Of a DNA stretch of 64,000 nt, positions 19,020-61,176 are shown piece by piece. Origin of the DNA: Nemertoderma westbladi. Taxonomy: Eukaryota; Animalia; Xenacoelomorpha. Every line of letters begins with the position of its first letter. The first letter of the stretch is position 1. The position numbers were made by a program, and so were the translations under genes. Location: the NCBI GenBank assembly GCA_032718475.1, contig JAUCBJ010001006.1, positions 1-64,000 of the forward strand. Direction: 5' to 3'. A model generated the notes under the pieces. The model did not search any database and had not been told where the DNA came from. It saw only the letters and a list, made by a program, of their open reading frames with translations.

Positions 19020-19182
19020 TTATCGTATTCGGAATACATTGTTAATTTTCCTTTATTCTCGTATTTGGTGTAATTCTACTTTAATGTGCTGTGCTGTATT
19101 TCTCAAATTTAGTTTAGTTAGTTCTGCCTTGTATGTACAATGGATCATTTGTGTCCGAGATTATAAATTAAAATAAAATAAA

Positions 19183-33851: not shown

Positions 33852-33895
33852 GTGTTAAGAACCAACAGCCCAAGCTGACTGCCAAAGACTGAAAG

Positions 33896-37813: not shown

Positions 37814-38039
37814 TTGAAGTTTAGTCGTCCAATATTTTGGACTGAGGGGGGTGGGAATGAGGGCGAGACGCCCTTCTCACACAAATAATTATTTAATTTA
37901 AATAAATAATAAAAATTATTATATAATTAAATATAAGAAAGTAATAGTTAGAAGAGATAGTAAGTAGTAGTCAGAAGATAAGTTAGTAGAGAGTTAAGTT
38001 AGAAGGCGGCGGGGTAAGGGAGTGTGGCATATTATCATG

Positions 38040-38285: not shown

Positions 38286-41200
38286 CTTACTTACTATACT
38301 TAGTGACTATTATAAAAAATTATTATAAAAAAAAGGAATACCTGAACTGTACTGCTGTACTGACTACTGCCTTGACAACTGTCAGACTTTGTGGCGCCAA
38401 ATTATATATTTCTGATTGTGTTGCCTCTATATTCGAGTGAACGCGTCACTGCAGTCGGCGTTTTGATGGCAGCTTGTTGTGGCTGCAATGGACGGTTCGG
38501 GCGCTGCAAGAAATGTATATGCATCAGGAATAGCTTGCGGTGCTTATCGTGTGCCCCAGGAAGAAACGGTAATTGCGAGAACAGCCAGCACCCTTCCTCT
38601 CAACCTCTACCGGATCGCCACAAACGACCTTCGTTCTCCCAGACGTCAGTCTCACAGCCGCTTAACTCTTGCGCTGCTTTGGAAAGTCCAGCAAACGATA
38701 CATTGATGGATCAGGACGAAACTATACTGGGTGGATCCCCGATTGTCCAGGATACTCCTCTAGCTGCCAGTGCGTCAGCATCATTGAACTCTCCAGTTTG
38801 GTCTCCGGGCGCAGCACGAGCGAGGGCCAGTGCAATCATATCTAGGATTCGGAGCCCTGGTACAGGGTCTGCTTTGGGGTCAGCAGTTAAAGACGTTATA
38901 CTTCAGACCCCGAACTATTCAGATCCCCGAGCAGTCAAGTCCGTTCCTTCAGCAGTCCAGTCCGGTTCCCCTTCAGTCCAGTCGGGTCCCCTGCAGTCCA
39001 GTCGGTGCGCCCAGCAGTCCAGTCGGGTCCCCCATCAGTCCATTTGGTGCGCCCAGAATTCCAGTCAGGTCACCCATCAGTCCAGTCGGGTCCCCCATAT
39101 GTCCAGTCCAGTCGGATCGCCCAGCAGTCCCAGTTGGTTCCCCATCAGTCCAATCGGGTCCCCCAGCAGATCAGTTGGGTCTCCCATCAGACCAGTCGGA
39201 TCCCTCAGGAGTCCAGTCAGGTCCCCCAGCAGTCCAGTCGGGTCACCCATCAGACCAGTCGGGTCCCTCAGGAGTCCAGTTGGGTCCCCCAGCAGTCCAG
39301 TCGGGTCCCCCTTCAGACCAGTCGGGTCCCCCATCAGTCCAGTTGGGTCCCCCTTCAGACCAGTCGGGTCCTCAGGAGTCCAGTCGGGTCCCCCGGCAGT
39401 CCAGTCAGGTCTCCCATCAGACCAGTTGGGTCCCTCAGGAGTCCAGTCGGGTCCCCCAGCAGTCCAGTCGGGTCTCCCTTCAGAACAGTTGGGTCCCCCT
39501 TCAGTCCGGTTGGGTCCCCCAGCAATCCAGCCGGGTCCCCCACCAGTCCAGTTGGCACCATCGGCATCTATCGGTCGACCTCTGCCATCCTCCCTGTGCA
39601 ATGTTGGACTCACTTCAACAAAGTGTCAGCCCCCTACAGTCGCGGGTCAGTCGTCCATCCCAACTCATACTGTATCTTGATGTAATACAACTCTACCAGT
39701 CCAGGAGATCTCTAGTTCTGTGGAGAAGGTGTACAGCACCATCGTACACTGGAGACCCAACCTATTTTTAGTTCCTATGGGCGCTGGAGGTAGAGAGTTG
39801 GTCTCCGAGTATACACGGCTGGTTAAACTGTTTACATCAGGATCAGAGTTACAGGAGATCGCCCTTTATGCACTGATGTGCATACCAGCGCTCCTGTTAC
39901 AGAAACCCAGTAGGTCATCCAACGCAGCGACCCACAGGAAGATTCTGGAACGTCGTCTGTGTGATTGGCGGGCTGGTCGATTCCTACAGCTGTTGGTGGA
40001 AGCGAGAGCCATCAAAAAACACCTTCCAACGTCCCGGGTAAAGAAATCAGATACAGAGGCGATCCGGAAGGCGTTTGTACGCCACATGCTGACTGGGAAC
40101 GTGTCAGCGGCCACCCGTTGTCTCTCCGATATCAACAAAGGTAGTCCCATGAAACTGTCAGACACCTTTGTTGATAAGAATGGGGCTACCCGACGGGTGA
40201 GGGACGTTCTGCTGGAGAAACACCCGCCAGCCGCCCCAGCTGACAGTTCAGTGCTCCTGACGGAGTGGGATGGAGCGCCAGAACACCATAACGTCGTGTT
40301 CGAGCGGCTAGATGGCTCCCTCATCCTATCGAGTCTTTTCCGGATGAGAGGTAACGGTGCTAGTCCTTCTGGGTTGGATGTCCAGGGGTGGAAGCACATC
40401 CTGACCAAGTTCCGCCAACAATCCATTGACCTGTGTGGTGCCATAGCCGACATGGCGAAACGGATTAGTCAGGATGTGCTGCTCTCTGGCGTGATGTCGG
40501 CGCTCCTCTCCTGTCGGCTGTTGGCGCTCGATAAGTGCCCCGGAGTTCGTCCGATCGGCATTGGCGAGGTTCTACGGAGGGTTATCGGGAAGGCGGCGAT
40601 GCGGTGCATCACAGAGGATCTTCAGAGCGTTGGTGGGTCGACTCAGCTGTGTATGGGCCAGAAAGCTGGCATAGAATATGCCATACACAGTCTGAACGAG
40701 ACATTCTCAGAGGACGACTGCGAGGCCGTCCTCCAGATCTACGCCACCAACGCATTCAACTCGCTGAACCGCGACGCCGCCATCCATAACATCCGCCACG
40801 TCTGTCCCTCCCTTCACACCATCGTAACAAACTGTTACAGCGAACCAACGCGACTGTTTGTAGGGGGGGAGACTATCTACTCCAGGGAGGGGTCGACCCA
40901 GGGGGACCCGGCTGCGATGCCAATGTTCTCCGCTGGGACACGGCCATTGCTATCGGAGATCGCTGCCGCCTGCGTGGTGAACCAGAAATGGTTTGCCGAT
41001 GACGGCAAGCGGCGGGTGCCCTCAGGGAACTAAGGAAGATTTGGGACGTGGTGGTAATGCGTGGTCCGCTGTACGGGTACTACCCGTCCAAGTGCCACCT
41101 GACGGTGAAGTTGGAGAAACTGGCGGAAGCAGAGGAGATATTTGCGGGAACCGGGATCGTCATCTCCGCGGGGGGGAACAAACTCCTAGGCTGTGTGGTG

Positions 41201-42692
41201 GGGTCTGCCTAGTACCACCAGGCCTACATCACCTCCAAGGTCGAGGAGTTCGTCGCAGAGGTAGACCGACTCGGCGACATCGCCAGCATCGACCCCCACT
41301 GCGCCTACTCTAACCTGGCGCTGGGGTTGTCCTGTCGCTGGCGGTTCCTTGCGAGGGTGGTCCCAAATGCCGCCCTCCATTTCGATGACCTTGAGGGCGC
41401 AGTTCTGCGATGTCTGTGCAAGATCGCCGACCACCCTTCGATCCCAGACAACGAACGCCAGCTCCTCTCTCTACCCATAAGGAACGGCGGTTTGGGTATC
41501 CCTCTCCCCTCAGACCTCACCAACCAGTTTGCAAACTCCTGCCGGGTCTTCGAACCGCTAGAGGGGGCGACAGCCGAGACCATGTCAGACGTCAGGGAGG
41601 ATCAGAACCCTATCACTAATCTGATAAAGGCTGAATCCTTCGTGGCGTCTAAGACCAAAACAACAGAATGTCATGGTCGGCTGTCGGAGTCCCAACAGAA
41701 TCTGAGGGAGCTGGTGTCGGAGAAGGGGGCTTCAGCTTGGTTGAACTCAAAACCGGTCACCCTTCACAAAACTCACCTGTCTAAGGAAGAGTTCCGCGAC
41801 GCTCTGTGTCTGTGCTACGGCTGGCAACCGAAGTCGCTCCCTTCTCGTTGTGTCTGTGGGGAACGATTTTCCCCTTCACACGTCCTGTTGTGCCCCACCG
41901 GGGGTTATCCCTCGATAAGGCACAGCAAGATACGCGATTTCGTTGCCGACGCACTAACCGAAGTAACCCACAACGTTGCAGTAGAGCCAACACTCCAGCC
42001 TTTAACAGGTGAGGAGTTCACCCACAGATCCACCTCCACAGAAGATCAGGCGAGGTTGGACGTCTCTGTCAGCGGGTTCTGGGGTGGCCGGTTTGAGAAG
42101 ACTTACTTTGACGTCTCGGTCTACAACCCTCTAGCGGCCACCAACGCAGCCATGACTGCCGAGGGCGCTTATTCCCACCACGAGGCGCGGAAACGCCTGA
42201 AGTACGAGGAGCGCATCCGAGAGGTCGAACTGTCGTCGTTTGTGCCTCTGTTACTTTCAGCCTTTGGTGGTACTGCGCCAGCGATGCAACAGTTCGTTAA
42301 GCGTTTATTGCTTAAACTCTCGGATCGTCGCGACCTCAGCTACTCTGAGTGTATCTGCTGGACGCGGAGGAAGATAAGCTTCGCGCTTCTCCACTCCAGT
42401 TTGATGTGTCTCCGTGGAGCGAGATCCGCCACCAAACGCCCCGTTTATCATCAGGTGTCAGCAGACTCGATTTGCCTGACTAACGCTGATACCAACACCG
42501 GCTAGACTGACTGTCAGTGGTAGTCATAGGCCTCTAAACAGGCCCTTCTTTCTTTATTTATTTTTTTTTTTTTATTATCGGTATCGGTGTAGGAATTATT
42601 TATTTTGTTCTATTAATAAAGTGCCTGTAAAAGAGTTATGCTGATATTGTGCAAATTATATAATAAACTAGTAAGTTAAAAAAAAAAAAAAA
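38286..42692 (+). mobile_element. CRE-like non-LTR retrotransposon with a restriction-like endonuclease (RLE), frameshifted
   Basis: Cys-rich N-terminus, RT (RPIGIGE, NAFN, QGDP, FADD), C-terminal CxC..H..C finger and RLE (RLDV..FDV..E..KRLKY), polyA tail at 42678-42692, possible TSD TAGAGAGTTA. Confidence 0.88.
38930..39555 (+). repeat. 21-bp-based tandem repeat in the CRE-like element
   Basis: About 28 variants of CAGTCCAGTCGGGTCCCCCAG, mostly open in several frames. Confidence 0.9.
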
Positions 42693-43316
42693 GTAGAGAG
42701 TTAGTAGCAGAGTAGTAGTAGTAGTAGAGTGGTTGTGGGGACCGCAAGCGCCACGTAGATAGAGGTAGTGAGCAGAGTGGTTCTGGGCACCGCAAAAGAA
42801 AGAAAGTAGTAAGTAGGGTTAGAGTTAGTAGAGAGTTAGAGGGTTTTAGTTAGACTTAGTAGAGCTAGTTAGAGTCGGAGAGTTAGTAGAGAGTAAGAGA
42901 GTTAGATAGTTAGCAAGTAAGTAGTAGGTAGATAGTATGATAGCACAGGGGTAGCATTAGAGATTAGGGCCTTAGGGAGTGGCAGAGAGTAGAGATGAGA
43001 TAGTGAAAGGAGTTGTTGGCGAGAGAGAAGAGTGCGATTCAGGTGTGGGGAGAGGGTAAGAGCGAGTTGAGTGAAAGAGCGGAGTTAGAGTGGCGAGAGT
43101 GTTGGGGAAACAAAAATTGTGTGAGAGAAGCGCACAATCGGCCCGACATGAGACGCCAGAGGGTAGTGACATCATACCCATAGGGAGCGGCCTGGAAAGC
43201 CGACTCCAAGAAAAATAACTCCACCCCAAACCCGATAATAGATCGAGTTCCAGCGGAATTGAAGCGCACTAGTGGTTGATGCTATCTTCTCACCAGGAAG
43301 ATAGCATGGGGGGGAG

Positions 43317-43828: not shown

Positions 43829-43846
43829 TTCCACTTTGGAAAGAAG

Positions 43847-44403
43847 TGTGACGGGATCCAGGAAGGATCCCGGTTTATCCGGTTGTTTAGTTCACGCGTC
43901 CCCGCCGTGCGTATGAAAGGTAAAAAGGGTTCGTGTCATTCGTCGTATATAATAATCGGTTGTACGGATATATAGATATAGGGTATATAGATATAGGTAT
44001 GAATAATGTTGTCGTATACGGAAGGCGGGATACGGTAATTAAAGTCCCGGTCCTTCCCTAGCTAAACTAACTAACCTAACTAGCACCAATATGATACTGA
44101 GATAACTGAACTGAAATGATTACTGCCAACTGGCTATATTGCACGGGTGGCCTAATTACTCTACCTAATCGATGCCTTTCCCCCCCTCTGATTGGTTGAT
44201 ACCCTTGTTGGCGCCCTTTGGAGTGTTCCCGTTCACTCCACCTGTTCTCTCTGGGTTAGGGGTTTGGCCCCTGACCCTCATTGTGTTTCTCCTTCCCATT
44301 TTGTTGGGGTGACACGAGTTGGTGATTACCCAATCTCGCGGCCCCCAATATTGCTTATCGGCTTAACTTTTATGGGGTGTTAGCGGGATTGGATAAGCTA
44401 ACA
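43847..44403 (-). repeat. 3' LTR of B
   Basis: TG...CA termini, near-identical to 60614-61176. Confidence 0.95.
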
Positions 44404-45199
44404 CTCCCCCCCATGCTATCTTCCCGGTGAGAAGATAGCATCCACCTTAAGTGCTCTACAAACCCGCTGGATCCCGATCTAGTATCGGGTGTGGGGTGGA
44501 ATTCTTTTTTTTTCTCGGAGCCGGCTTTCCAGGCCGCTCCCTATGGGTATGATAACGCTACCCTGTATGCCTGGCGTCCCATGTCGGGCCGATCGCGCTC
44601 ACCTCTCACGCGACGTTTGTTTCCCCAACACTTTCGCCCTATCTCTTCTCCACCCTCACTCTAACTCTCGTATACCCTTGGACCTCCTCGTCCCTCACTC
44701 AGCCTCTTATTCTCCGCCCCCACACTAGAATTGCGTCCGCACTCTCTCCGCACTTCGCTCCATTACTCCGTCCCTCAACCCCACATCGACTACCTCATCC
44801 CTTCTGACGAATCTCCCCCCCTTTTTGTGCCGTTGCACTCAAGAAGTGTGAAATCGTCTGGTGTCTCGTCCATAGTGCCATAGTCAGTTATCCCCCCAGT
44901 CCCAGTAGCTAATTGAGAAAGGTTGCATGACTATAGTACTTACTCCGAACGTATATTTTTATTGCTAAACTACTGATTACTACGTACGTACATATAATTG
45001 CACTTATTTTAATTATTTGCATCAGCTTAGTTCGTACTTAATAGTTCGTATGTCCCACGCGGCGCCTTCCAGGCGTACCACGTCCAGGTTTCAGTTTCTC
45101 TCCCCCGGCCCTGGGAACCTATCTGTTCCTCTGGAGATAGTTCCCCCTGGCGTCTTCTTCCCTGGGTCATTTCTTGGTTACCACCGCTCCTCTGGGATC

Positions 45200-46450
45200 C
45201 GCTTTCTGCTTTCGGACTTTTGCCGCCACCTCCCTGCTGATTCCGGTTGTTGGCTCCTTGGGCGCTGGTGTTATTAGTTCCCGATATCGCTTTGCCGGTG
45301 GCCCCTCCGAGTGGCCCTGTTGTCTCCCCCTGGTGGCGTCCTATAGGATCATCTTCATTGGTCGCGGCACGTGCTCCGCCAAGAAATGCCTAAACTCCCT
45401 CGGTTCTGTGGCGTCCATCTGTCCAAATATCTTTGTGTATTCATCACTCCGGCATACGACGCCGCCGTTGCTACCTCTTGATAGGTAAACGGTAGCCTCC
45501 GCTTTACGATTTCCATGTGAGCCTCCTGATTGATAAGGAAGAAACCCCACTTGAACTCCTGGGCCTTCATGCGCTGGCGCGTCATGGCCCCGACGTCGGC
45601 CCATTCTTCGAAGATCCTAAACTTCTCTTCGTCGTCCATCCAGTCGCACTGGCGTCTGTAGTGTCCCCGAAAGTTGTACTTCGGACATCGGTTATGCAAC
45701 CGTGGACACGCCCCCATCCTGTGGCTTGACTCTCGGCAGTAGAGACAAAAGGTTCCCTTTTGGAACCGGTACAAGCAGCTCCTTTCCTGGTGGGTCTGTC
45801 TCCCACAGTAGTCGCAACCGAGTACCAATGTCTCCCGCCCCACGTCGTCTTTCGTCCCAAGCGATCTCCTCGGTCTGTGGAGTCGCTGGTAGGCGAACTT
45901 CTCCACGTTGGTGTCCCTGTCTACGTCGATCTCTCCGCCCCTCTTGGGCATCGTTTCCCCGAATACTATCCGTGGTGCCGTCCCCGGTTGCTCGCCCAAC
46001 CTGATAGTGCTCCCCGCGAAATCCATCGCCGGCTACTCGTGCACCCAGGTCCGCTTGCCGGATCTGTTCCCGAAGGCCCTCGCCCCACTGGCCGTCACCA
46101 CCCTTCCGCCAACCCAGTCCGTGTCCGAGTGGCCTATCCTCTCGATGGGCGGCATCTCTCCAAACTCGTCGTCGTCCTCCTCCTCCTCTGGCAGTGGCTC
46201 CAACCCCGGTATCCCGATGGATCCACTATGTCTCTTCCCGCCTTGGCTCTCGCCCATAGCTCTCCATCCCTCTAGCTCCCTTAACTTCCTTGGCGGTTGG
46301 TCGCCTTCGGCGCCCGCTGGTATGGCATCTCTTGCAACCCCGACGTCGACTGTTTCGGTGATCCCACCGTCCATCCCAGTTCTCGCCCTAGAGACTCCCC
46401 CGAACTCCCTGACGAAGTCCAATGAAGTTCGTCTAAGCCTGCCTGTTCCT
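45200..46450 (-). pseudogene. Probable C-terminal continuation of the accessory ORF: acidic linker and three CCHC-like knuckles
   Basis: ORFs 46033..46422 and 45355..46026 share a frame, separated by one stop. Knuckles CDYCGRQTHQERSC, CLYCRESSHRMGAC and CPKYNFRGHYRRQC. Confidence 0.7.
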
Positions 46451-47663
46451 CGAAGCCGTAACTCTGCGTCCTGGCCTCCTCTTCCCTCTCCTCTGCTTCT
46501 ATCCTCTCCCGTCTAGCGACTTCTTCCAGTCGCTTTGCTTCTCGTCTATCCGTCTCTAGCTGCTCCCAGCTCTGATACGGCGTATCCGTCTCCCCGTCTA
46601 CCAGATGTCGGCTGTTGTAGTACACCGACTTGCCCTTCAGCCCCGGGTGGTCTACCAGACCGTCGAAGGCCACTTTAAAGGCTCTCCTGTAGCTTAGGGG
46701 TGATCCTGATAACAGAAATGCCGCTGGTTCCCCCTCGATAACCACGGTCATAAATAAGTTAAGCAAACTTATCATCATCCTATCTTCCTGCAGGATATAT
46801 CGCTTCTGATATACCTTTATTGCTCCTCTGCGGAATTGATATACCTCTTGCTTTCCCGGTCTCGCTCCCCACTTTAGCGAGTTCGCTAGTTCTGCTCCGT
46901 ATTCTTCCCTGAACTTCCCCCAGTCCATCGGTTTGTGGCACACGAGCCCCAATAGTTGGCCCATCGCCACCGCCCCGCATTGGCCTGTGTTTTCGACTAC
47001 CCCCAACCCATCCGGTGCCGTCATAGCCATAAAGACCTTCTGCATATCCAGGAGGTTGGTGGCGTCCGGACCGATGATTCTCTCTGCATCCTCGCGAATC
47101 GGCGATCCTACTTTTGTCGTCGACTTCTCTCTTACCAAGACTTGTACCGCTTTCGGCAATCGGTTTAATTTCGGCCCGTCCTTCTTCCCATACGTTCCTA
47201 GATCGAATAAGAAGATGTCCCCATTTGGCGCGGCCAAATGTAGGAGTATGGTCCTGGCCGACCCCGCCGATCCTCGTCTCGAACCTGCCTCGTCTTCCAC
47301 GGTTCCCTCGTCGTCTAGGATCATATATCCTCCCCTGTTGACGGGCTCTATGAATCTCTTCCAGTCCTTCCTTGGTGATTCCCTCGGGTACTTCGGAATC
47401 CCGAACTTCGCCTCGTCCCCTTTCACCACGTAGTGGAAGTGTTGGAAGATCGCGTTGTCCAGCGACGGCGTCCCGTAGGTCCCAACCAGCCGCTGTTCGT
47501 GCATCTCCCGGAAGTGATCCTGCAGCGCTCGTGCCACGTGACCCCTTTCCAACCTCTTGTAGTATCCTTTCGTATTCTCTTCCGGATGCCTCTCGGTGAA
47601 ATCCACCAGTATCTCTTTTCCTCCTGACTCCGCCTTTCTCTTTCTGATCAATTTGCTCGCCAT
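46281..47663 (-). CDS. Accessory DEDDy-type 3'-5' exonuclease (WRN/EXD/mut-7/RNase D-like)
   Basis: ExoI YMILDDEG, ILLHLA..IFLFDL, ExoII LPKAV..KVGSPIRED, NLLD, ExoIII QKRYILQED. ATG at 47663. Confidence 0.75.
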   Translation of the reverse strand: MASKLIRKRKAESGGKEILVDFTERHPEENTKGYYKRLERGHVARALQDHFREMHEQRLVGTYGTPSLDNAIFQHFHYVVKGDEAKFGIPKYPRESPRKDWKRFIEPVNRGGYMILDDEGTVEDEAGSRRGSAGSARTILLHLAAPNGDIFLFDLGTYGKKDGPKLNRLPKAVQVLVREKSTTKVGSPIREDAERIIGPDATNLLDMQKVFMAMTAPDGLGVVENTGQCGAVAMGQLLGLVCHKPMDWGKFREEYGAELANSLKWGARPGKQEVYQFRRGAIKVYQKRYILQEDRMMISLLNLFMTVVIEGEPAAFLLSGSPLSYRRAFKVAFDGLVDHPGLKGKSVYYNSRHLVDGETDTPYQSWEQLETDRREAKRLEEVARRERIEAEEREEEARTQSYGFEEQAGLDELHWTSSGSSGESLGRELGWTVGSPKQSTSGLQEMPYQRAPKATNRQGS

Positions 47664-48097
47664 TCCGAACACTCACTCGCTCACCTGTAAGGTGGTGCCT
47701 TACCAAGGCACAATACAGATGAGTGATGTATCTAAGATGTTCTGTACGGTCCGATAATGGCCTATTCTTTAGTTAATTGCGCCCTTTTAGCCTAAATTAT
47801 TACTAATTAATTCTGAAGCTAGTAAATACACCTTAATTTCGATTTCTGTCAGTTACTTTTATTATGTTCCAGAATAACTTTCCTAATGTTGCCATTATTT
47901 GTAACTTTCAGCCCTATTCTATTTATTTTTATCTATCTATCTATCTATTTTTGGTTTAATTTTAATTCTACTGTCCTACTACTTACTATTGCCTATGGAT
48001 TATTCTATTCTCTAATCCACATTCTGGCCTACTCTGTGGGCCTGTGCAGTACAGCAGTATGCGTCGCGTGGCCACACGATTTACCCAGCTGTACTCA

Positions 48098-48104
48098 TTT
48101 TATA
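48098..48104 (-). promoter_or_regulatory. Internal TATA box upstream of the B accessory gene
   Basis: TATAAAA between the tandem array and the ORF; AATAAA at ~44958-44963 downstream of the ORF. Confidence 0.5.
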
Positions 48105-48174
48105 TGCCCCCCTCTTGCTACTAACTGCTAACTAATATCTATATCTTATATACCCTTTTACCTCTTACTCTCTC

Positions 48175-48460
48175 TCTCTAACTAGCGGTACTACGTACCC
48201 TCTAACTCTAACTCTTCTCTAACTAACGGTACTACGTACCCTCTAACTCTCTAACTAACGGTACTACGTACCCTCTAGCTCTCTAACTAACTAGCGGTAC
48301 TACGTACCCTCTAACTCTCTAACTAACTAGCGGTACTACGTACCCTCTAACTCTCTAACTAACTAGCGGTACTACGTACCCTCTAACTCTCTAACTAACG
48401 GTACTACGTACCCTCTAACTCTCTAACTAACTAGCGGTACTACGTACCCTCTAACTCTCT
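48175..48460. repeat. 29-36-bp tandem array with a GGTACTACGTACC core
   Basis: Eight copies of CGGTACTACGTACCCTCTA. Confidence 0.9.
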
Positions 48461-48602
48461 TCTGCCTACTAACTGCGTACCTACTATGTACCATTATTTT
48501 TATTTTTATTTTTTATTTTTTATTTGTGTGGGAAGGGCGTCTCGCCCTCAATCCCACCCCCTCAGTCCAAAGCTTGGACGACTAAACACTTCTCTAACTC
48601 CA

Positions 48603-51600
48603 CTAAGGTGCCCCTTCTAGCAGACAGCATTTCCCTACAGCTCTCCTGTAGGTTTTTCTGTCCTTCGCACCTATCTTACCACCTATCCGCACTTCTACTG
48701 ATCGGACTCTTCCGTCCTCGTCGGAGTAAGTGCCTACAACTCTCGCCAACCGCCATTGGTTGTTGATGATAGTATCATCCGTAACGATTACGAGATCTCC
48801 CTCTCTTAACTCCCTATTCGGCTTCCTCCACTTGCTTCTTTTATGGAGCGTGGGCAGATATTCTTCGACCCACCTCCTCCAATACTCGGCACTTATTGCT
48901 TTAGCGACTTTCCAACTCTGGCGGGAGTGTATGTCGTCTGGATCTACACCCCGCATATTGATGGTTGCTGGCCTTTCCATTAGAAAATGGCTAGGCGTCA
49001 GCACGTCTAGTGATTCAGGGTCATCATTCTCCGGATATAGCGGTCTGCTATTAATGATCCCCTCGCACTTTGCAAGCACTGTCCGTAAGACGTCCTCAGT
49101 GACCATGTGGGTGTTCATGAGCTTTGTCATTAGACGCTTTGAACTGCCCACCAGTCTCTCGACGCATCCTAGTGTATGTGGTGCATACGGCGTCCTTCTC
49201 TCCCACTTTACTTGTCGTCGTCTCATGGCCGCCCTGACTTCCTCCCCTTCCAAGATGTCCAAGGCCTCTGCCATCTTATTCTCTGCGCCCACAAAGTTGG
49301 TGCCGTTGTCGCTGTATATCACTGCGATCGTCCCACCTTTGCGGTCTCTAAACCTTTCTAAGGCATTAATGAATGCTGATGCGGTTGCATCTTGGGCGAG
49401 TTCTATCCCTACCGCCCGCGTGTTGTTACATACGAAGATGATACCGTAGCGTTTCTCCGTGTGCCGCATCACCTTGATCTTTATCGGCCCGAACATGTCC
49501 ACACCGCAATGTGTAAATGGCGGGTCGTGCTGTCTTACTCTACTTGCTGGTAGTGGCGCCATCTCTTGTATGGCTCGCTCCTTCTTCGCTCGTCGGCAGG
49601 TTTGGCACTGCCCCACTACCGTTTTTACTTTCTTCCTCAACTGTTTGACCCAAAATGTCCTCCTTATCTCTGTGAGAGTTCTGTTGGTGCCCCCGTGCAA
49701 TATCGACTTGTGGGAGTCCCAGATTATCTGGTTAACTATTGGCGATCCTGTTGGAATGATGATGGGTTTCGGTGGTACAATTATGCTGTTGTTGTATCCC
49801 ACCCTAGAATTCATTACTAGAATCCCGTCGTCATTAAGTTGTGGCAACAGCGTGATCAGCTCGCTGTCCCATCGGAGGTGCTGTTGGTTACCGACGCGTT
49901 CCACCTCGTCACCATAGTTCTTCCGTTGTTCATAGCGGATGACTGCCTTGGCTGCTCCTTCCAGATCTATGGATGTCCTGATCTTCTTGTTTTTGCCGAC
50001 TCCCGCGAGGAAATTCCCGAAGGCTCTCCAGTACGCCACTAAGTTCTTGGTCTTATACCAACTAGAACTGTAGCTGAGGAGTTTATCCGTCGGGTTATCG
50101 CATAGTTCTTGCTTTGGTTGAACCTCCCTAATCTCCCTCACCATCTGGGAGTATATCTCTTCTCCCTCTGAATCTCCTTATTCTCCCTCTGACACCACTT
50201 CCGAGCCCGGGTCCACCTTTCTCATCGGCAGCCAGGCCTCCTTATCGCTCAGAAATTGTGGCCCATGTTGCCACAATACTTCCTTCTTCAAGAAAGTGTG
50301 GCGTACCACGCCCCTCGACAACAAATCCGCTGGGTTCTCGTCTGTTGGGCAGTAGTGACACCTTTCCAGTTCTGTGGTTGCCCTTATTTCGTCCACTCTA
50401 TTTGCGACGAATATCGGGTATCTCGTCCTTTCGTTATGTAGCCAACCAAGCACTACCATGGAGTCCGTCCAGTAGTGTGTCTCCACTATGTTGGGAATAG
50501 TATCCACTAGGTAGGCTGTGGCTCTAACTCCTAGTCTCGCAGCTGTCAACTCCAACTTGGGAACTGATGCTGAATCTGGCGGCGTCGACTTTGCTTTGCT
50601 AAAGGCTAGTCTGGGCTTTTGAGCCCCCTCTCGTTGTACTAAATAGAGTGCCGCTCCGTACGCCTCCAACAACGCATCGGAGAACATGTGTAGGTCCAGA
50701 TTCGTCATGTTCCCATCCAGAAAATACACTCGTGGCATGTTGTATATACCCATCTTCTCCAAGTCTTCTGTCCACTTACTCCACTGTTTCTTAATTTCCT
50801 CTGGTACCTCTACGTCCCACTCATCCTTCAATTTGTATACTCTCTTGAGTATCTGTTTCCCCGTGACTAATAATGGGGATGCTAGGCCTAGGGGATCGTA
50901 TATTCTTGCTATATACAATACATAGCCCCTCTTCGTGTGGATGTCTGCGCCCTCCTGGCTCAGCTGATACTTCAGTTCGTCCGTCTCTCTGTTCCACACG
51001 ATTCCCAATGCCTTCTGTTGGGATTCTGTTCTCTTGTTCGCCATGTCCTGCCCTTTGGCTGTTGTGGGATTATCCATGGTCGATTATGGTCTCTTGTCCT
51101 CTATCGCCTTGATAAATTCTTCCGAACTGGATTGGAATTTGGTCAGGTTAAAGCCGGATCCTTTTAGGATGTCGCAAACCTCGCGCCCTGTGTCCAGTAT
51201 CTCCTTAACCGTATTTCCAGACTCCATTCCGTCATCTACGTAGAAGCCGCGTCGAATCATATCGATGGCCCTAGTGCTGTATCTATCTTCCTTCCCTTTC
51301 ACTGTATCTCTCACTGCCATAGTCGTCGTAAATGAAGACGACTTGGCTCCCATATTTTGTACTACCATCTTATATGCCAGTATTATCGACGGTTCTTCCT
51401 CGCCGTTATACCATAAGAAGCATTGACTGTCGCTATCTTCCTCCGTTACACGGACTTGGTTGAACATGCCTTCTATGTCACACGTAAAGGCGTGCTTCCC
51501 ATTCCTAAATCTAAGTAGGACCTCTATGCCCGAGTTGTATATGTTTGGGCCTTCTAACAGATAGTCGTTTAAGCATTTCCCGTTGGTCTTTGCCGATGCG

Positions 51601-53867
51601 TCAACTACCATCCGCAGTTTACCTTTCTTTGGGTCTAAAGCCACGTGGAGTGGCAGGTAATATGTCCTGTCCATGTTCCGTTCGTCGACCGCTAACTCCA
51701 CGGCCCATCCTTTCTCGACGTACTTCTTAATCGTTTTGTGGATGTACTCATTCTTCTCGGGGCTCCGTTTTAGTGTTTTTTTCAGCTTGCGGAGTCTTGT
51801 GAGTACCATCCCTCTGTTATCGGGCAGCGGTATCTTCGGTAGTTTCCATACCATTCCTATAGTATACCACCCCTCATCGCATGTCATCAATTCCTCCACG
51901 CTTTGTAAAGCCTGCTTGTCTTCTACCGAGGTTCCGACCCCGGTCTCTTTCAGTCCCTCGAAATATTGTCTGAGCAATCTTTTAAGCTGCTCCTCTGCTC
52001 CCTCATCACCCATTTCCTGCATTGTTCCCGCGAACATGCATCCTGATGTCTCCGACATCCTAAATGGTATCTTGGTCTTAATTGGGCCACTCAGCGTCCA
52101 TCCGAATGGCGTTAATATCGCCACCCGGTCACACTGCTTGTCTTCGCCGCAGACCGTTTGCATTCTTTCATGGGCCGTTGGGCAATCCATTCCTACTATG
52201 ATGGATACCTTCCTAACGTCCACGTCTGGGATTGAGAAGTCAATGTCGTCCAGGAATTTATATTGCTCGACCTCGATGTTGGTTGGCCGCCTGGCATTGA
52301 TATTAATTGACTCTATCACTTGGATGGGGTCGATGGTTGCCCCATAGTCGCATTCCGGTGCCACTGCTGCAATTGCGCACCGGCCTGTTCTCATCTCCAG
52401 GATCTCATCTTTGCTAGAGATGGTTGTTACCGCCATTCTGCTTGGCCTCGTTCTCAATCCTATCTCTTCGGCCACCCATTCCTTCACTAATGTGAAGGCA
52501 GCTCCACTATCAACCAGCATTAGTGTTGTTACTGATCGATTGCCTTCCCCGATCACTCGCACGGGTACTACTCCAAGTAACACCGTTCCTCTCTTCTTCG
52601 CCCCTACTGTGCTCGTTGCCATCGTTTGGCCTCTCCTTTGACCGAACTTTACCGGCTTCTCCTTGCATTCCCTAGCTCTATGTCCACTCATCACACATCG
52701 CGAACAGATTTTATTGCTCAACGCATAATCTATCTGATCTTGCCTAGGTAGCGCCTGCCAGTACCTGCAGTTCATGGTCTGATGAAGTGCATTTGCGTGT
52801 AGCTGGCATCTGCTCTTTGGGTCGTAGCCCTCCTTATGCAGCGCATTGCGTATCGCAGCTGCGTTTGTATCAAAGTCCCTACTGTTTTTATTGTTTGGAT
52901 TCGGCCTACTGGACGTACTGGGGTTATATTTATTTGTGTTGTTATTGTTCCCCTGTCCGTTCCATGCTGTGGTCTTAGTTTCGGCTATCTGTGGACTTGT
53001 AGTCCCCTGCGTTGTTGCATATGGCAATGATTGCCTGAGTCTCGGTAATGCGTTTGATGTATTATGCTCTGGTTTCGGTCTATGGTAATCCGTCTTCGGT
53101 TCCTTTCCCAGGCTATCTTCGCTATAGACTGGGTCAGTTATTAGTTCAGCCTCGTAGTTTAAGAAGCTTGACATTTCTTCTAAACCCGGTTCCGCACCCT
53201 TCTTGTCTCGAGTGGAGAAAGCGATCTTCCTCCACTTGTTGCGCAGCCAGTTCGGTAGTGCCTGCGCTATCGTGGTGATGTTACTGGACGCGTTGAGCTC
53301 GTATGGCGCGTCTAGCATCTTCAGCACGATTAGCGCCTTTTCGACTTTGTTAGCGAACGTCTTGATGCTAACGGGATTATCCTGTAGGCCACCCGATGTT
53401 ATGCCTCTCAGTGTCTGCCTGATGATCTTGGCCGGGTGCCCGTATTCCCTATCCAGTGCCCGCCATGCTGTCGTGAAGCCGCCCTCTATTCCTTGATATT
53501 GCCTCACGATATTGTATGCTGGGCCTCCCGTGTATACTTGCAGATACTTTAGGCACTCCGCCTGCGTCAAGTTTTTTGTTAGTATTTCGTTACTATACAT
53601 GCGCCGAAACTGTAGATATTCTTCCGGCCTACTCCCATCGAACTTGAATGGTTCCACGGGTGGTAACTCGATCCTCGTTTTCAACGCATCGATCAACGTG
53701 GCCATCCCCATCGCCTGTGCTTCCAATGGGTTCGATGGATGTTGTATAGTTTCTCCTGTCTGGTGCGGTCCGTCTGTCCCATTTCCACCTCTCCTTTGAC
53801 TTGGATATGTCATCGGGGGTAGCGGCCCCCTCCATATTTCTGTGTCGCACGACCTATTTTCATCCAA
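48603..53867 (-). pseudogene. B gag (capsid, NC) and pol (PR, RT, RH, IN) with only two in-frame stops
   Basis: ORFs 51084..53867, 50178..51077 and 48603..50144 share one frame. Motifs PFKFDG, LVDSGA, FYVDD, MFSDA, VDMFGP, SDNGTNF, VERLV. Confidence 0.93.
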
Positions 53868-55405
53868 GGGTCTCGTTGTTCTTGCTCCTATCGGGGTATA
53901 TTGTTGATATTGTGATGGGGGAATGTCACCCTGTCCCCCCCCCCCCCCCCCCCCCCACCGGTATGTTTGGTACTGGGGTTGATGTTAATATGTTTGGGCC
54001 CATACACCTATCCGCAATAATTCCCCCCTCCCCTGGGTATATGTTATGTCCCTGCATGCTGTAGTCATACTGCTGTACTGGTACCGGTATAGGCCTATCA
54101 GCTTCTGGCCTACTCGCCGGTATGTATTCCGCGACTTCCGGGTTTAATCCCGTCGTCCGCGCTATCCCATTGCCTACATTGCCTCTATCAGTATGGCCTA
54201 TGGTATGTGCAGTAAGGCCTACAGTATGTCCTACAGTCTGCATGTGTCGCTCGGGATCGAAGTTTATTCTTCTCGAGTAGTCCTCCCCGCGGCTACCGCA
54301 TTCTCGATCCCTAGGTATATTCCGTCGGAAAGTTTCTCTTCGACCCCCCCCCCCCCCCCCCCTCTACTGTTCTCGTCTTCGTACCGGTACATCGCGTACC
54401 CCTCCATCGGCGCGTAATGCGCCTCACCAGGTCGCATCTCTCCGGGGCGACGGCAATCTCCCGGAGTCCGACCCCACTGACTCTCTGTTCTCATCTCGAC
54501 TACCGACGGCTCGCTATCCGTCCTCGCTCTTCTATCGTTCGCGGCAATACTTCTACTACTGTCTTCTCTTCTTCTCCTTTCAGTGGAGTATTCCCGTTTG
54601 TGAGATCTCTCGTCGACCTCCCGGTTAAACCCCACCGTTCTTCTTCCCTCTTCTGATCGGGCTCGACGCTTCGTCCACCCTCTTACAACGTCAACCTGTC
54701 TCTCTCTGCTCGGTCGCACTCCGCTGGGGATACTCGAAATCCCCCTATTGCTTTCCGTCGCCGGGTGTTGCGGTTTACCTATTTCGGCCCGCGCATTATC
54801 TGCTGACGGCTGTGGGACACTCTCTGCCCCCCCCCCCCCCCTTTCGCCGCTAACTCGCTGTTGTGGGGCCCCTGTAGCCCCCCCCCCACTCGCCACATCT
54901 AACTTCGCTATCTCTCACCCCGCTACCACATCCCTCTCCAGTCGACACATCAACCCTGCCGCAGTTGGGTCTATTCACCCCCGCCTCTCCCTCTGCTATT
55001 GCGTGGCCTACCAGGCCCTCTACTCCCTGCCTACCAACTACGTGGCCTACCAGGCCCTCACTGGGTCTACCCAACCCAGCCACTCCCTGCCTACCAATTA
55101 CGTGGCCTACCAGGCCCTCTCTGGGTTGGCTCAACCCCGTCTGCTCCGGCCTACCAATTACGTGGCCTACCAGGCCCTCTCTGGGTCTACCCAACCCAGC
55201 CACTCCCTCCCTACCGACTACGTGGCCTACCAGGCCCTCTCCTGCCTGGCCATACACGCCCGACGTGTTCACGCCAACAGCACTCATATTGGAAACGGAA
55301 TTAAATTGTTCGTTTGAAACAAAATCATTTGAATTATTTTGTAAATTTGGGCTTGGATCATTACTTAAATTATTTGAATTATTTTGTAAATTCGGGCTTG
55401 GATCA

Positions 55406-58400
55406 TTCTATTCTATTTCATTTCCGGCTTCTGGCCCCGGTGGCTATTAATTAGCATTAATATTAAAATAGGGATAAAATGTGAACAATACACAAATGCA
55501 TAATATAGTACGATAAAATATAAGTTGTAGAAATAATAGTCATAATAAGAAATTAAGTAAAAATTGTTATATCCATGTACTATGCAATGCGTAGTTAATC
55601 ATTGAAAACGATATGGTGCGGATATGTCGTTTATTTTACATATATATATTCTTTTTTTTTACACGCTCGTGGGACATTTCATTTCAGTCAATAAAGTACT
55701 GGAAGTTGTTGTTACAGGACTTCTCTCTATTCCCTCTCCCCTCAAAAAAGTCGTTATTGCAGCATGTTTGATTTGAAAGCTTGCATGGCTGTTCAAAATG
55801 GAATAACAATACATGGCCTGGAATTCATCTTTAAATGGTGTTGTTGTTTCACTGCTCAAAGTTCTTTGTCTTGCGCCTTTGATGACGGCTTTTATGTTAA
55901 ACAGGGTCGATGCTAGGTTTGTTAGAGATGGTAGATCTTCCTTCCATGCCAATAGACTGTACTCAGACATGTATGTATTATCTCGCGTTCTCGCTGTATG
56001 ATGTGCTAGTATTGTTGAGAATAAGTGTAATACTTTAGTATTATGGCTATTTAATATGTTGTATGTGACCCGACATTTGTTGTATGCTACTATTTGTTGA
56101 ACAGTTTCACTGTCGAAGAGCTTCCATAAGACATTGTTAGATATGTAATTACTAACTCCAAGTATTGTGCGCATGGCTTTTCGGATTGTTCTATCTAGGG
56201 GTCTCAATAGGGCAATCCCTATAGTTGAAGATCCATAAAAAATTGATGGGAGACATACAATTTTCCATATGAGAGATGTAACGTTTAGTGGGACATCATA
56301 GGACGAAAGTGCTTTTGATTTTGTTTGGGAAACATTTATCCAGCACTTTTTCGTGAAGTGGTCTCGTAGGTTGGATGGGGTAGATGGTAAGGGTAGCCCC
56401 AAATATTTAAGTTTTGCCTCTTGTATTAGGTTTTTCCCAGGTTCAACTTGAATTGATTCTTGATTTCCTGTCGGTTGTGAAGAGGCAACAATGTAATGGG
56501 ATTTGTGTATGTTCAAGCATAATCCATTATTCTTGAAATAGTTGGTGCACAGACGTAGTATTCTGATGAGGTCAGATTTTAAATTGGCCAATATTAATAT
56601 GTCATCTGCAAAACTAAAGGCTGGGTAGGACTCATCTGCAACATGTAGGCCCAGTTTGGCAGTATCTAGGGATGCAAATAGGTCTGCTAAGTAAAAATTA
56701 AAAAGCCAACCAGAGAGTACTCCACCTTGGCGTATGCCACGATGGAGTGGTATCATCTTCGTATGGATGAGGTTTCCAATCTTTATTGAGGCTTTTGATT
56801 TGCTGTAATAGGAGGATAACAAAGCGATCAGTTGTGGACTCAGGTTTGTTTCTTCGAGTTTGCTGAACATAACATTGTGTTTAATGGTATCAAAAGCGGC
56901 CGATAGATCGAGTGATACGACATGGACTGGTGATGACTCTTTGTTGAAAAATTCAATGAGTTTGCTTGCTGTTAGATATGGTACTTCACTGTGCATCCCA
57001 TGTTTATATGCCATTTGCAGGTGGCTTTGTTTAATTGGTTTTAGTTCCTCAATGATTGTGTGCTCCCAAAGTTTGACAAAGATAGATATTATTGATATTC
57101 CTCTGTAGCTTGAAACTTGATCCTTTTGTTTGTCATAACCTTTAAGTTGTGGTAGGAGTATGCTTTGGCACATTTCTTCAGGGAAATAAGAATGAGATCG
57201 CATTCCGTTATATAGTGTTGCAATGAAATTGCATAATGACTCAGAGCTTCCATAGTGCAGATGTTCGGCTTTGATGTTGTTTCTATCCGCAGCTTTACGT
57301 TTGTTTAATTTCGATATTGCCATTGCAATATCGTTTCCTGTTAGAAACTTATAGTTTTTGTAATCTTTCTGAGGGACAGTGACTGTCTTATGTGTGGTGT
57401 TTTCATTTTCACACCTTTCGAAAAAACGTTCATAATGGTTGTATAGATTTGTCCTATTTGCTTGTGTCATATGTCTATTTCCGTCCTGATTAGTCCGTAG
57501 CTGATGCCAAAACTTGTTAGGGTTAGACTCACAAGCATTTGCTAGGTTAATTATCTGGTGCTTGTATGCTTTGTGTTCTTGGTACGCTTTGTATCTTCGT
57601 TGCTTCAGTTGTGATAGGTCATTTTTGGCCTGATTAGTAGCTCCATCTGTTTGGTAGTGATCATTATTAAATTTAACTGGACTCCTTGTTCTGAGGGCAT
57701 GTTTCCATTTTTTCCTCTTACGTGGCACAATATTTGGTATATATTTATCAGCAGCTGCTGAAAGTGTGCTAATCATACTTGACACCATGTTGTCTAGAGT
57801 ACAGTTGTCTAGTTGTGGGTTATTCATGGCTTCACGAGTTAGTGTTTTAAATTTGGACTCTATTTCCTGCTTGTAGTCTTCGATTTGAGAAGTTGAGGCT
57901 GTATCAAAAAGGTGTACTTTCTTCGCTACTTGTTTCTTCCAACTATGACCTGTAGTTGCATTGTCCGTTTTAGTCATCGAGAAGGTGGTCATTACTGGTG
58001 TGTGATCTGATAGATTGTTACTATCTTGAATGAAAATATGTGTATTGCTGTTTGATATCAGAGAGTTTTCGCTTATGATGTAGTCAATTAAAGTTGTTCT
58101 TTTGATTAGGCCATCCCTTGATTTGAAGTGGTAGCTTGTATCTGCTCCAGTTGTTGAGTAACGAGTACTAGTTATTTCCATATCAAAAGGCTTCATAATA
58201 TGCTCCTTAAACAGCTGGCCAAAGTTGGATCTTATTATGTTGCTTATTGAATCTTTTTTTGGTTGCAGCTGGCCATTTATATCACCTGCAATAATCACTG
58301 TTTCATTGTTATTGGTTGACTCCTCCAACAGGCTATGTAATTTTCCACACTCTTCTAAGTATAAGGTCCGAGATTGTTCTTCTTTTGTATCTGATGGCAT

Positions 58401-58752
58401 GTATAGGCCAAGAACTGTGAGGTCAGATGTGGATAATCCTTTTATGTTTATACCAGCGATTCTGTCAGACATTGTTTTTCTCACAGATGTGTATGGTGCG
58501 AGAGTTGTTTTAATAAAGATTGCGACGCCCCCTTCCCCTCGAACTCTCTGTTTTTGTTCAAACATTCCTTCGGATATAGTATAGCTTATGCAGCTGTACC
58601 CTTTTTGGATCCTTGCCATTTGAAAGTGAAACTTTGCTTCTCCAGCGCTGAGCCAGTGTTCCTCTATGACTAGGATGTCTGGTGTGTGGTGTTTTAGAAT
58701 GGAGTTTGTGTATGTCTTGTTGTGCATATATCCTTTGCAGTTTTTCCTTTGC
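55406..58752 (-). mobile_element. 5'-truncated RTEX-like LINE in B gag
   Basis: (TAGAA)n tail. A ~28-bp flank ATTATTTTGTAAATTCGGG.TTGGATCA occurs on both sides, within a host repeat. Confidence 0.85.
55659..58752 (-). CDS. Uninterrupted LINE ORF2 (APE-RT)
   Basis: Motifs EEHW, GGVA, GDIN, IDY, SDH, LDLSAAFD, GIRQG, FADD, KYLG. Confidence 0.9.
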
Positions 58753-60613
58753 ATTATTTTGTAAATTCGGGGTTGGATCAATACTTAAATTATTTGAATT
58801 ATTATTATTTTCTAAATTTAAATTATTATTTGGATTATTTTGCACGTTCAAATTGAAATTATTATTTGTATTTAAATTTAAATTACTGCTACTAGGTAAA
58901 GTATTATTTGCTGCAATAGAGGGATTAGGGTTATCCAATACGGTACTATTAATATTAACGACGTCTACTGTAGCGTTATTATTACCCCCCCCCCCCCCCC
59001 CCCCCCGCCCGTACGGTCACACCAGTCTTGGGTCTGTCGTGCGGTCCCTGTAAGTGGGGTATTAATAAATTTATCCACAGCCCCTGGCTCCTCGAAAATA
59101 GTCGAGCCTGCCCCACTCTCAGACGCCCCCATTCGCGCCAGTTCCCGCTCACGCGTATGTATAGCTTTATACCCTCTAAGCTCACCTTGACGTTTCTCTA
59201 GCTCTCATCGCTTATACTCCTTTCTTGCCATTCTCTCCCTACACTCCCGTGCGTCCCGCTCGGCCAATTCCAACTCTCTTCTAGCCCCCTCCCTTCGTCT
59301 CGCCTCATGCTCTCTGCGTTCGTTTTCCTCTCTCACCTTGCGTTCCCTACGTTCCGCCTCATGCTCTTCTTGTTCCTTCCTCCCTACTTCCTCACACTCC
59401 CTAAGGCTTCTTGCGGCCCTTTCGGCCCTCTCTCCGGTTTCCTTAATTAACGCCATTTCCCTCTCTAGCAGCACTCTCCCCTCCTCTAACCGTCTATCTA
59501 CTTCCCTTTGACCTTGCTCTATTAAATCGAGTTGGTACGTGGCATTTATCTCTCTCACCTGTCTTCCTTTCGCGGAGGATGTAGCAGACTTATCGGTTCC
59601 GACGGATTCCCTCCGCCTTCCCGACCTACTGACTTTCCCCCGCCTCCCGGAACTTCCTCCGACCGATGAGGCCGAATCCTCGGGGTTAACCTCGGATTCG
59701 CCCTCCTCAGGTCTCTCCCAACCCACTAATTTTAGTCCCCGGGCATCGACTAAGTATGGCCCTACGTACACTACGCTAGGTTCCATACCCCTACACCGCC
59801 ACAAGTCATACAGTTGCTCGGCAACCCCTCTCGCTCTCTCCTTTGCCAGTTCTCTTTGCCCGAAGCGCATTAGATAATTAAAGTGTTTATTCGACTCACC
59901 TAGTCGTTTTCTCAGTCTCACTTCGTCTATCTTCGCCCCCTCTTTGGCCTCCTTTAGCAGTTTCTGGGTCGCGTTGTTAGCCCGTCGAAGTCGATCAGAA
60001 ACCCCGACGTCCTCGTCGCCGACCTCTCTTCCGTCTCTCCGGGTCCGACGTCGTACCGGCGGCCCCACCGTCGCCGTTTCGGTGGGCCGTTCGTCGCCCT
60101 TGGCCTGTAGCTGACCTGCGACATCGGTACCAACATCTCCTCCGTCTCTCCGCGTCCGGCGTCGTACCGTCGGCCCACCGTCGCCGTTTCGGTGGGCCGC
60201 TCGTCGCCCTCGGCCTGTAGCTGGCCGGCGACATCGGCACGTTGACCCACGTCCCGTGTCGACTTGTCTCCTTCTCCCTCCGTCTCGCTCTCTCCTCCTC
60301 TCGGCTCGACCTCGGGTTCCAGGCGGCCCCCCTCATCCTGAACTGCCGGGTGACCCGTTATCGATGGGTCCGGCGTTGTGGGCCTGTACCGTCTGGTTGC
60401 GGCCTCACGGATCGTTAACTCTTCGTCCAGGGTCCGCGTCGGCGTCGTCTCTCCCGACTGACTCATCTCGCTTGGTGATTGGTGGCTGGTAGTTTAGCTA
60501 GCTAGGGCGGCAGCTCTGAGTTTAATTACTACCGAAGGGTTTAATTACTGTCAGGGTAGCTGCTAGGTTTTAATTACTTAGTCTAGCTAGGGCGGCAGCT
60601 CGGATTTAATTAC

Positions 60614-61176
60614 TGTGACGGGATCCAGGAAGGATCCCGGTTTATCCGGTTGTTTAGTTCACGCGTCCCCGCCGTGCGTATGAGAGGTAAAAAGGGTTTG
60701 TGTCGTTCGTCGTATATAATAATCGGTTGTACGGATATATAGATATAGGGTATATAGATATAGGTATGAATAATGTTGTCGTATACGGAAGGCGGGATAC
60801 GGTAATTAAAGTCCCGGTCCTTCCCTAGCTAAACTAACTAACCTAACTAGCACCAATATGATACTGAGATAACTGAACTGAAATGATTACTGCCAACTGG
60901 CTATATTGCACGGGTGGCCTAATTACTCTACCTAATCGATGCCTTTCCCCCCCCCCCCCCTCTGATTGGTTGATACCCTTGTTGGCGCCCTTTGGAGTGT
61001 TCCCGTTCACTCCACCTGTTCTCTCTGGGTTGGGGTTTGGCCCCTGACCCTCATTGTGTTTCTCCTTCCCATTTTGTTGGGGTGACACGAGTTGGTGATT
61101 ACCCAATCTCGCGGCCCCCAATATTGCTTATCGGCTTAACTTTTATGGGGTGTTAGCGGGATTGGATAAACTAACA
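60614..61176 (-). repeat. 5' LTR of B
   Basis: TG...CA termini, flanked by the TSD. Confidence 0.95.

Follow-up and report, generated by a model that had tools for sequence, protein, structure and literature searches.

Between pol and the 3′ long terminal repeat (LTR) of a BEL/Pao retrotransposon of Nemertoderma westbladi (Xenacoelomorpha), here called element B, lies an accessory gene whose product very probably has a DEDDy-like fold with the signature D-E-D-E plus Tyr. Element B is on the minus strand of a 64,000-nucleotide stretch (the window; positions 1 to 64,000 of contig JAUCBJ010001006.1, assembly GCA_032718475.1), which is a nest of retroelements. Comparison with contigs from several sequencing runs supports the gene as an integral, selected accessory gene of a multi-copy BEL/Pao family, and the element has a primer site complementary to its own LTR. 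Our first choice for the role of the protein, a tentative one, is 3′ trimming of RNA made by the element itself, in maturation of the primer or of the genome 3′ end.

Element B and its accessory gene

Element B is a BEL/Pao element by its LTR ends, its target duplication, and its domain order. The two LTRs are 97.9% identical, a 5-bp target-site duplication (TSD), AGAAG, flanks the element (43842-43846 and 61177-61181, with the flanks read directly), and Pfam searches find, in BEL/Pao order, DUF1759 as gag, an aspartyl protease, the reverse transcriptase (RT) region, Peptidase_A17 as the Pao RNase H, Integrase_H2C2, rve, and DUF5641; RVT_1 gives no score in pol, and a YVDD motif is present in the RT region. 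These data agree with a preliminary description of the window, made from the sequence alone, that had reported a TSD-bounded BEL/Pao element here. The integrase shares only 31-43% identity with the 120 best of 731 matches, all matches being BEL-type. In a tree of 118 rows (three short matches omitted) it occupies a long branch with no near relatives; the lineage therefore has no close relatives among those sampled. The window also contains element A (33284 to ~43830), whose gag is 72-82% alike to that of element B, and which has neither most of pol nor the extra gene; an unrelated long interspersed nuclear element (LINE) occupies their place.

Downstream of the element B pol are four AATAAA motifs, a 36-bp minisatellite, an AT-rich spacer, and then the extra open reading frame (ORF; Table 1). 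As the preliminary description had stated, this ORF is on the same strand as pol and precedes the 3′ LTR, it has an RKRK motif near its N-terminus, and its Exo motifs follow in the correct order. The succession is ExoI (ILDDEG, 47321), ExoII-like (IREDAE, 47099), WGARP (46871), and the ExoIII-like YILQED (46799).

Table 1. Coordinates of element B, its accessory gene, and the primer sites of elements A and B within the window
Feature	Position	Strand	Remarks
Element B	61176-43847	minus	BEL/Pao LTR retrotransposon
5′ LTR, element B	60614-61176	minus	paired with 43847-44403
LTR 9-mer complementary to primer site, element B	60802-60810	minus	LTR position 367-375; candidate self-primer end
Primer-binding site, 9 nt, element B	60605-60613	minus	directly 3′ of 5′ LTR
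LINE-type ORF (endonuclease and RT)	55659-58784	minus	inserted in 5′ part of element B; Pfam
gag-pol region	48603-53984	minus	three open pieces; pol end 48603
Four AATAAA motifs	48499-48524	minus	immediately 3′ of pol
36-bp minisatellite	48170-48460		between pol and extra gene
Second TATA-like box	48146-48152	minus	
TATA-like box of the preliminary description	48098-48104	minus	chance P 0.46 (shuffles)
Extra ORF	47663-46281	minus	460 aa in this copy; ATG at 47663; RKRK at aa 7
DEDDy-like core	46698-47381	minus	aa 95-322; unbroken in this copy
ExoI residues	47315, 47309	minus	D117 and E119
ExoII residue	47090	minus	D192
ExoIII residues	46799, 46787	minus	Y289; E293 in last acidic column
E/R-rich charged helix	46553-46464	minus	aa 371-400; predicted coiled coil
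Frameshift	near 46325	minus	
Linker with acidic patch	46033-46325	minus	frameshift to stop
In-frame stop	46033-46035	minus	
Zinc-knuckle segment	45355-46032	minus	
Canonical knuckles	45816-45775 and 45747-45706	minus	CX2CX4HX4C
Degenerate third knuckle	45687-45646	minus	
G/Q/R-rich open stretch	45027-45389	minus	possible C-terminal tail after second frame break near 45390
AATAAA 3′ of extra gene	44958-44963	minus	possible poly(A) signal; chance P 0.21 (shuffles)
3′ LTR, element B	43847-44403	minus	TG...CA ends
Primer site, 9 nt, element A	33852-33860		complementary to LTR position 362

Similarity to DEDDy exonucleases

When aligned by MAFFT with 77 bacterial DEDDy domains, the protein fills the catalytic columns with D117, E119, D192, Y289, and E293, and K184 falls in the column of the invariant Lys, such that the ExoI D-x-E and the ExoII Asp follow in order on family columns. 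The five catalytic columns are filled by 7 of 600 shuffled sequences, and all six including the Lys by one of 600; the five-column test was chosen after a test of ten columns. At ExoIII the Tyr is in register and is followed by Glu at +4 and Asp at +5 (the canonical form is Y-x3-D), which bears out the earlier remark that this motif (YILQED) is atypical. A different ExoIII, at EEYGAEL, is possible, and is picked by three of four glocal alignments and not by MAFFT; it has no acidic residue at +4. In a single BLASTP comparison with Escherichia coli RNase D, the segment around WxARP matches with an E-value of 2e-4.

In the ESM Atlas, which uses sequence features only, 24 of 30 matches are PF01612-type, WRN-like clusters and the other six, top-ranked, are unnamed eukaryotic clusters. 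All 30 of the 30 named matches are of the PF01612 type, with scores of 0.93-0.94 and 172-180 common features; this is a single source, for which shuffled proteins reach 0.9 in 4-10 of 100 cases and PF01612 is assigned to just 34-50% of cluster members.

Structure models are consistent with these matches. AlphaFold2 run on the single sequence is uninformative (predicted local distance difference test, pLDDT, 31), and when guided by the DEDDy alignment it gives a model with a pLDDT of 73 and a predicted template-modelling score (pTM) of 0.71. All 50 VIA rows obtained with the guided model are DnaQ-type (best Z 13.1; root-mean-square deviation, rmsd, 3.5; 171 residues aligned), and Foldseek places Egalitarian and EXD2 on top (E 4e-4 to 2e-3); Nibbler, EXD1, and RICE1 are also among the structural rows, the ranks being ties. 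Since the guided model is partly circular, it shows compatibility with a DnaQ-like fold only. The preliminary description had staked its proposal on a DnaQ-like fold, for which the ESM Atlas provides independent support.

Several results count against assignment to the DEDDy exonucleases. The extra gene has no HMMER match up to an E-value of 10 in Pfam, including PF01612, which was the comparison proposed at the outset; searches of NCBIfam and of PDB sequences likewise find nothing, and there are no matches among 1.84 billion proteins. Four profiles of our own, built from 94 PF01612 domains (93 bacterial, one viral), separate the protein poorly from controls: in local mode 14, 275, 61, and 5 of 2000 shuffles reach the same score, as do 3, 84, 14, and 3 of 243 natural controls, the best local score being that of the PolA profile (5 of 2000 shuffles), and in glocal mode the z values are 3.2, 2.7, 2.7, and 2.1, equalled by 2, 2, 3, and 18 of 95 controls. 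All ten conserved columns are filled by 17 of 300 shuffles, Glu replaces Asp in ExoIII, and a 12-residue insertion precedes that motif. Further searches also found no homolog, neither a word-indexed protein search at lengths of 253-805 aa and 128-408 aa only nor searches of phage records and of viral, metagenome, and prokaryote contigs.

As the PF01612 cut-off is not reached, we class the domain as DEDDy-like and not as a member of PF01612. Taken together, the evidence makes a DEDDy-like fold, as originally proposed, very probable. Catalytic activity of the domain is predicted with less assurance than the fold, although we lean towards it.

Organization and signals of the accessory gene

The preliminary description placed a coiled coil, an acidic linker, and three CCHC-like knuckles after one frameshift and one stop codon. 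Both breaks are present and the acidic patch does follow the frameshift, but the predicted coiled coil precedes it; two knuckles are canonical, whereas the third is degenerate in this copy. The knuckle segment matches zf-CCHC_4 with an E-value of 0.03, under the Pfam cut-off, and the knuckles are weakly similar to those of nucleocapsid, Lin28, and Trypanosoma brucei RNase D (E 0.02-0.35). The coding span is ~770 codons to 45355, and 879 if the tail to 45027 is included; near 45390 a length difference is seen in 1, 3, 3, and 1 contigs (7-12% of depth) of the sequencing runs described below, which lends the tail weak support.

A TATA-like box and an AATAAA were reported to frame the gene as a separately promoted unit. 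Both motifs are present, but at chance level, and in three runs a deletion overlaps the box (10, 3, and 7 contigs, amounting to 43-64% of the depth), so that we do not regard it as a proven promoter, and separate promotion is not established. An own transcript is plausible from the layout. AATAAA motifs cluster right after the end of pol in both elements, with four in element B and two in element A (~37900-37930), and neither the element A nor the element B LTR contains AATAAA or ATTAAA; the gag-pol mRNA may therefore end before the accessory gene. Were it to end there, the ending of the genomic RNA would be left unexplained.

In BEL/Pao elements env may occupy the position of the extra gene. 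The gene described here is not an env candidate, since it has no transmembrane stretch (maximum KD19 1.57) and no Pfam match to a fusion-protein domain.

The gene in other copies of the family

Five sequencing runs from three studies contain the extra-gene stretch; the runs were picked using this gene, two of them (X1 and X3) come from a single sample, and the source of the window DNA may itself be among the runs. In four runs, 7987, 4462, 5113, and 81 contigs align to 44410-48160. Three runs cover all 30 bins of this interval and run X5 leaves four of 30 uncovered. The fractions of contigs continuing into unlike sequence are 0, 0, 0.01, and 0.19, and none of the joints among 15 of 30 listed bypasses the gene. 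The summed depth of its coding part relative to pol is 0.72, 0.97, and 0.76 in three runs, which is not a copy number. Base composition and codon pattern resemble those of pol. With no terminal inverted repeats (TIRs) or TSDs at the borders inspected, and almost no contigs running into other sequence, we reject a separately inserted transposon; the preliminary description would have given way to an insertion missing from other element B copies, and the cover is instead even, with no listed joint that skips the gene.

The sequence variants point to coding constraint. Among 40 of 520 variant rows listed (rows at the two breaks and outside the frames being left out), 17 are in the extra ORF away from the break, with 11 segregating among other contigs and six private to this copy. 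Every one of the 11 segregating variants falls on a third codon position (nominal p 6e-6), and the six private variants are at positions 1, 1, 3, 1, 1, and 3. Third positions account for three of five listed variants in the linker and knuckle frame (p 0.21) and for nine of 11 in pol (23 of 40 rows used), and the codon of E293 has a single listed variant, again at the third position. At the in-frame stop, nearly all the depth of four runs (37, 22, 41, and 2 contigs) is unlike this copy, and the stop is therefore clearly private to it. The frameshift is probably private as well, as other contigs have length differences there (13, 4, 7, and 1 contigs; 11-36% of depth in three runs), together with loose ends. 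Given the third-position bias and the private stop, intact family members most probably encode one protein of ~770-880 aa that includes the exonuclease-like domain, charged helix, acidic patch, and CCHC knuckles.

Against an integral gene under selection stand three observations. Ten of the 11 third-position variants are clustered in a stretch of 120 bp, so they do not count as independent. No contig joins pol to the extra gene, and the alignments exclude the minisatellite between the two, so that linkage in other copies is only inferred. The gene has no match in element A or in the two other BEL elements of the window.

Run X5 (44410-48160 and 48465-54000) has several loose ends that match a Clontech 5′ complementary DNA (cDNA) primer (10.1101/2023.02.05.527185), which is a weak hint that X5 may be cDNA. 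Its depth increases toward the end of pol and likewise toward that of the extra gene. A single adapter end is at 47875, and others are within genes and on both strands; contigs cannot show transcript starts or levels.

A covarying self-primer

BEL/Pao elements are usually primed by tRNA. In both elements A and B the 9-nt primer site is complementary to the element's own LTR, with chance frequencies for such a match of 138/20000 (B) and 57/20000 (A). The LTR 9-mers are at homologous positions that align, and the primer sites of A and B differ at four of nine positions, each compensated in the element's own LTR; cross matches extend to 5-6 nt. Minimum-energy folds of both elements form the LTR/primer-site duplex. 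The self-complementary primer site thus covaries between two BEL/Pao-related families. We did not find BEL/Pao self-priming in the literature searched, to which most subscription papers and the repeat databases did not belong.

Proposed role and alternatives

A DEDDy domain followed by C-terminal knuckles is the design of TbRND, whose knuckles increase RNA binding and 3′ trimming (PMC7797062), and we therefore read the accessory protein as a putative RNA 3′-trimming enzyme, with RNA as its likely substrate. Maturation of the primer or genome 3′ end is preferred since two rare traits occur in one lineage and the primer needs a 3′-OH at the end of the duplex; a link between nuclease and self-primer is nonetheless an inference. 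The CCHC knuckles would bind element RNA and bring the protein to the particle, and a free 3′ end would arise downstream of the LTR 9-mer, either by a cut or from an RNA end already there. The nuclease would then shorten the RNA until blocked by the 9-bp LTR/primer-site duplex, and RT would extend the resulting 3′-OH into U5. The full scenario, in which a deep-branching BEL/Pao lineage dropped tRNA priming, gained an RNase D-like knuckle enzyme, and uses exonuclease-matured self-priming at a 9-bp duplex, is speculative and on present evidence rather doubtful. If true, it would be a priming route absent from the papers examined.

Three points argue against a role in primer maturation. Tf1 makes its self-primer with RNase H and no extra nuclease (PMC7175516). 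The status as a separate gene and the basic N-terminal motif would suit a nuclear factor acting in trans no less than an enzyme of the particle. The self-primer occurs without the extra gene in element A, although that element also lacks most of pol and must be complemented in trans.

The strongest alternative, which we consider possible if unlikely, is a counter-defence in which an active exonuclease shortens or destroys host PIWI-interacting or small interfering RNAs or their precursors, or clears element RNA that triggers silencing. The nearest structural and feature neighbours are eukaryotic relatives from small-RNA pathways (Nibbler, EXD1, RICE1, and the WRN-like clusters), the family is abundant, the gene is its own unit outside gag-pol, and arenavirus ExoN suppresses innate signalling (PMC7968707). 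The structural ranks are tied, however, and derive from an alignment-guided model, and the DEDDy ORF3 of rotifer retroelements has no clear correlation with copy number in the available text of PMC5408684.

An inactive RNA adaptor, in which a DEDDy-fold RNA binder like Egalitarian or EXD1 packages or transports element RNA by means of its charged helix and knuckles, is less likely again. Besides that helix, the Glu in the ExoIII Asp column and the insertion before ExoIII fit such a protein, as do the best Foldseek rows, Egalitarian and EXD2, one entry being titled as Egalitarian bound to I-factor RNA; yet none of the four acidic positions has been lost, nor has the Tyr, the E293 codon variant is at the third position, and VIA ranks active enzymes equal or higher.

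We think it improbable that the motifs are due to chance or that the segment is a separate passenger repeat and not the element's DEDDy gene. This would accord with the negative Pfam and protein searches, with the lack of a contig running from pol across the unaligned minisatellite, and with the three BEL elements without the gene, but not with the independent feature-based match, the catalytic-column test, the third-position bias, or the even cover of gene and flanks with almost no continuation into other sequence. Least probable is a role on DNA, in which cDNA ends would be trimmed or proofread ahead of integration. In its favour, DNA is the substrate of WRN-like and PolA-like exonucleases, the best local score is that of the PolA profile, and the N-terminal motif is basic; against it, the nucleocapsid-like knuckles suggest single-stranded RNA, the LTR ends are canonical, and integrase itself processes LTR ends.

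Neighbouring elements

Element B appears to be nested in a third element, which is in turn inserted in the 3′ LTR of element A (43830-43846 and 61177-61900), and a protease-like ORF with a DSAS motif is at 61143-61595. At 38376-42692, inserted in element A, is a non-LTR retrotransposon with a Cys-rich start, a 21-bp repeat array, a weak RVT_1 match, a restriction-like endonuclease-type C-terminus resembling Hero/NeSL, and a poly(A) tail; a similar 21-bp array is at 12198-12512. Two further, distant BEL/Pao pol regions (19182-23554, plus strand; 29162-32922, minus strand) are 24-33% identical to that of element B, the former with a 550-bp tandem duplication in the integrase (21485-22595). A ~100-bp motif with a short inverted repeat lies just upstream of the 3′ LTR in element B (44409-44508), element A (43212-43311), and a third fragment (8271-8370), with 84-88% identity, and is a possible cis element for packaging or plus-strand priming.

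Comparison with known systems

The preliminary description mentioned DEDDy ORFs in bdelloid rotifer retroelements, and these are indeed reported as ORF3 of the gypsy-like Juno and Vesta LTR retrotransposons and of Terminons (PMC5408684; repeated in PMC6431247 and PMC6338049). Like the element B gene, the rotifer gene takes the env position, as a third ORF flanked by pol and the 3′ LTR. The four LTR clades there are Juno, Vesta, TelKA, and Mag, and BEL/Pao is not mentioned in the available text of PMC5408684 (whole-word count 0). There the rotifer protein is described as having a DEED motif and lacking coiled coils, and its gene as not clearly deviating from neutrality, whereas the protein of element B has D-E-D-E, a charged helix, CCHC knuckles, and a BEL/Pao pol beside it; rotifer sequences did not appear among the search results. 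Processing of the 3′ end of element RNA was proposed for the rotifer ORF3, its function being untested there (PMC5408684). A DEDDy-type extra gene in BEL/Pao was not found in the literature searched, which excluded most subscription papers and Repbase.

The predicted combination of a DEDDy domain and C-terminal CCHC knuckles resembles that of TbRND (PDB 7C42), which its authors call very unusual (PMC7797062). TbRND matches the alignment-guided model with Z 12.9 (rmsd 3.6, 192 aligned), tied with other DEDDy rows and at 14-16% identity, and the likeness does not imply orthology. TbRND, a cellular enzyme of the mitochondrion, has four knuckles and a short linker, whereas the transposon gene has two to three knuckles and a linker of ~230 aa; its core and knuckles are split by two breaks in this copy, at both of which other contigs differ. 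The WRN-exo, EXD2, Nibbler (mut-7), EXD1, and Egalitarian subgroup provides the nearest feature clusters and is among the top fold rows, but has no significant sequence similarity to the element B protein, which is atypical at ExoIII, and its closest member is indistinguishable.

Self-priming is known for Tf1/Sushi, Tcn1, TAR, and Tj1 (PMC6317226, PMC4600332). Tf1/Sushi, Tcn1, and TAR resemble element B in having a primer site complementary to their own LTR and not to a tRNA end (PMC7175516, PMC6317226, PMC4600332), but they are gypsy or copia elements, and in Tf1 the 5′ end of the RNA forms the pairing, over 11 nt, with RNase H making the cut; the element B self-primer is 9 nt, in a BEL/Pao element, and probably internal to the transcript.

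DEDDy accessory genes of retroelements have so far been a rotifer curiosity without function or a clear sign of selection. Element B places such a gene in another LTR superfamily and in an abundant family, with codon-level constraint, knuckles as in TbRND, and a covarying self-primer adjoining, which suggests that retroelements have repeatedly recruited 3′ exonucleases. The small unbroken domain and the defined 9-bp substrate make primer maturation testable against small-RNA counter-defence.

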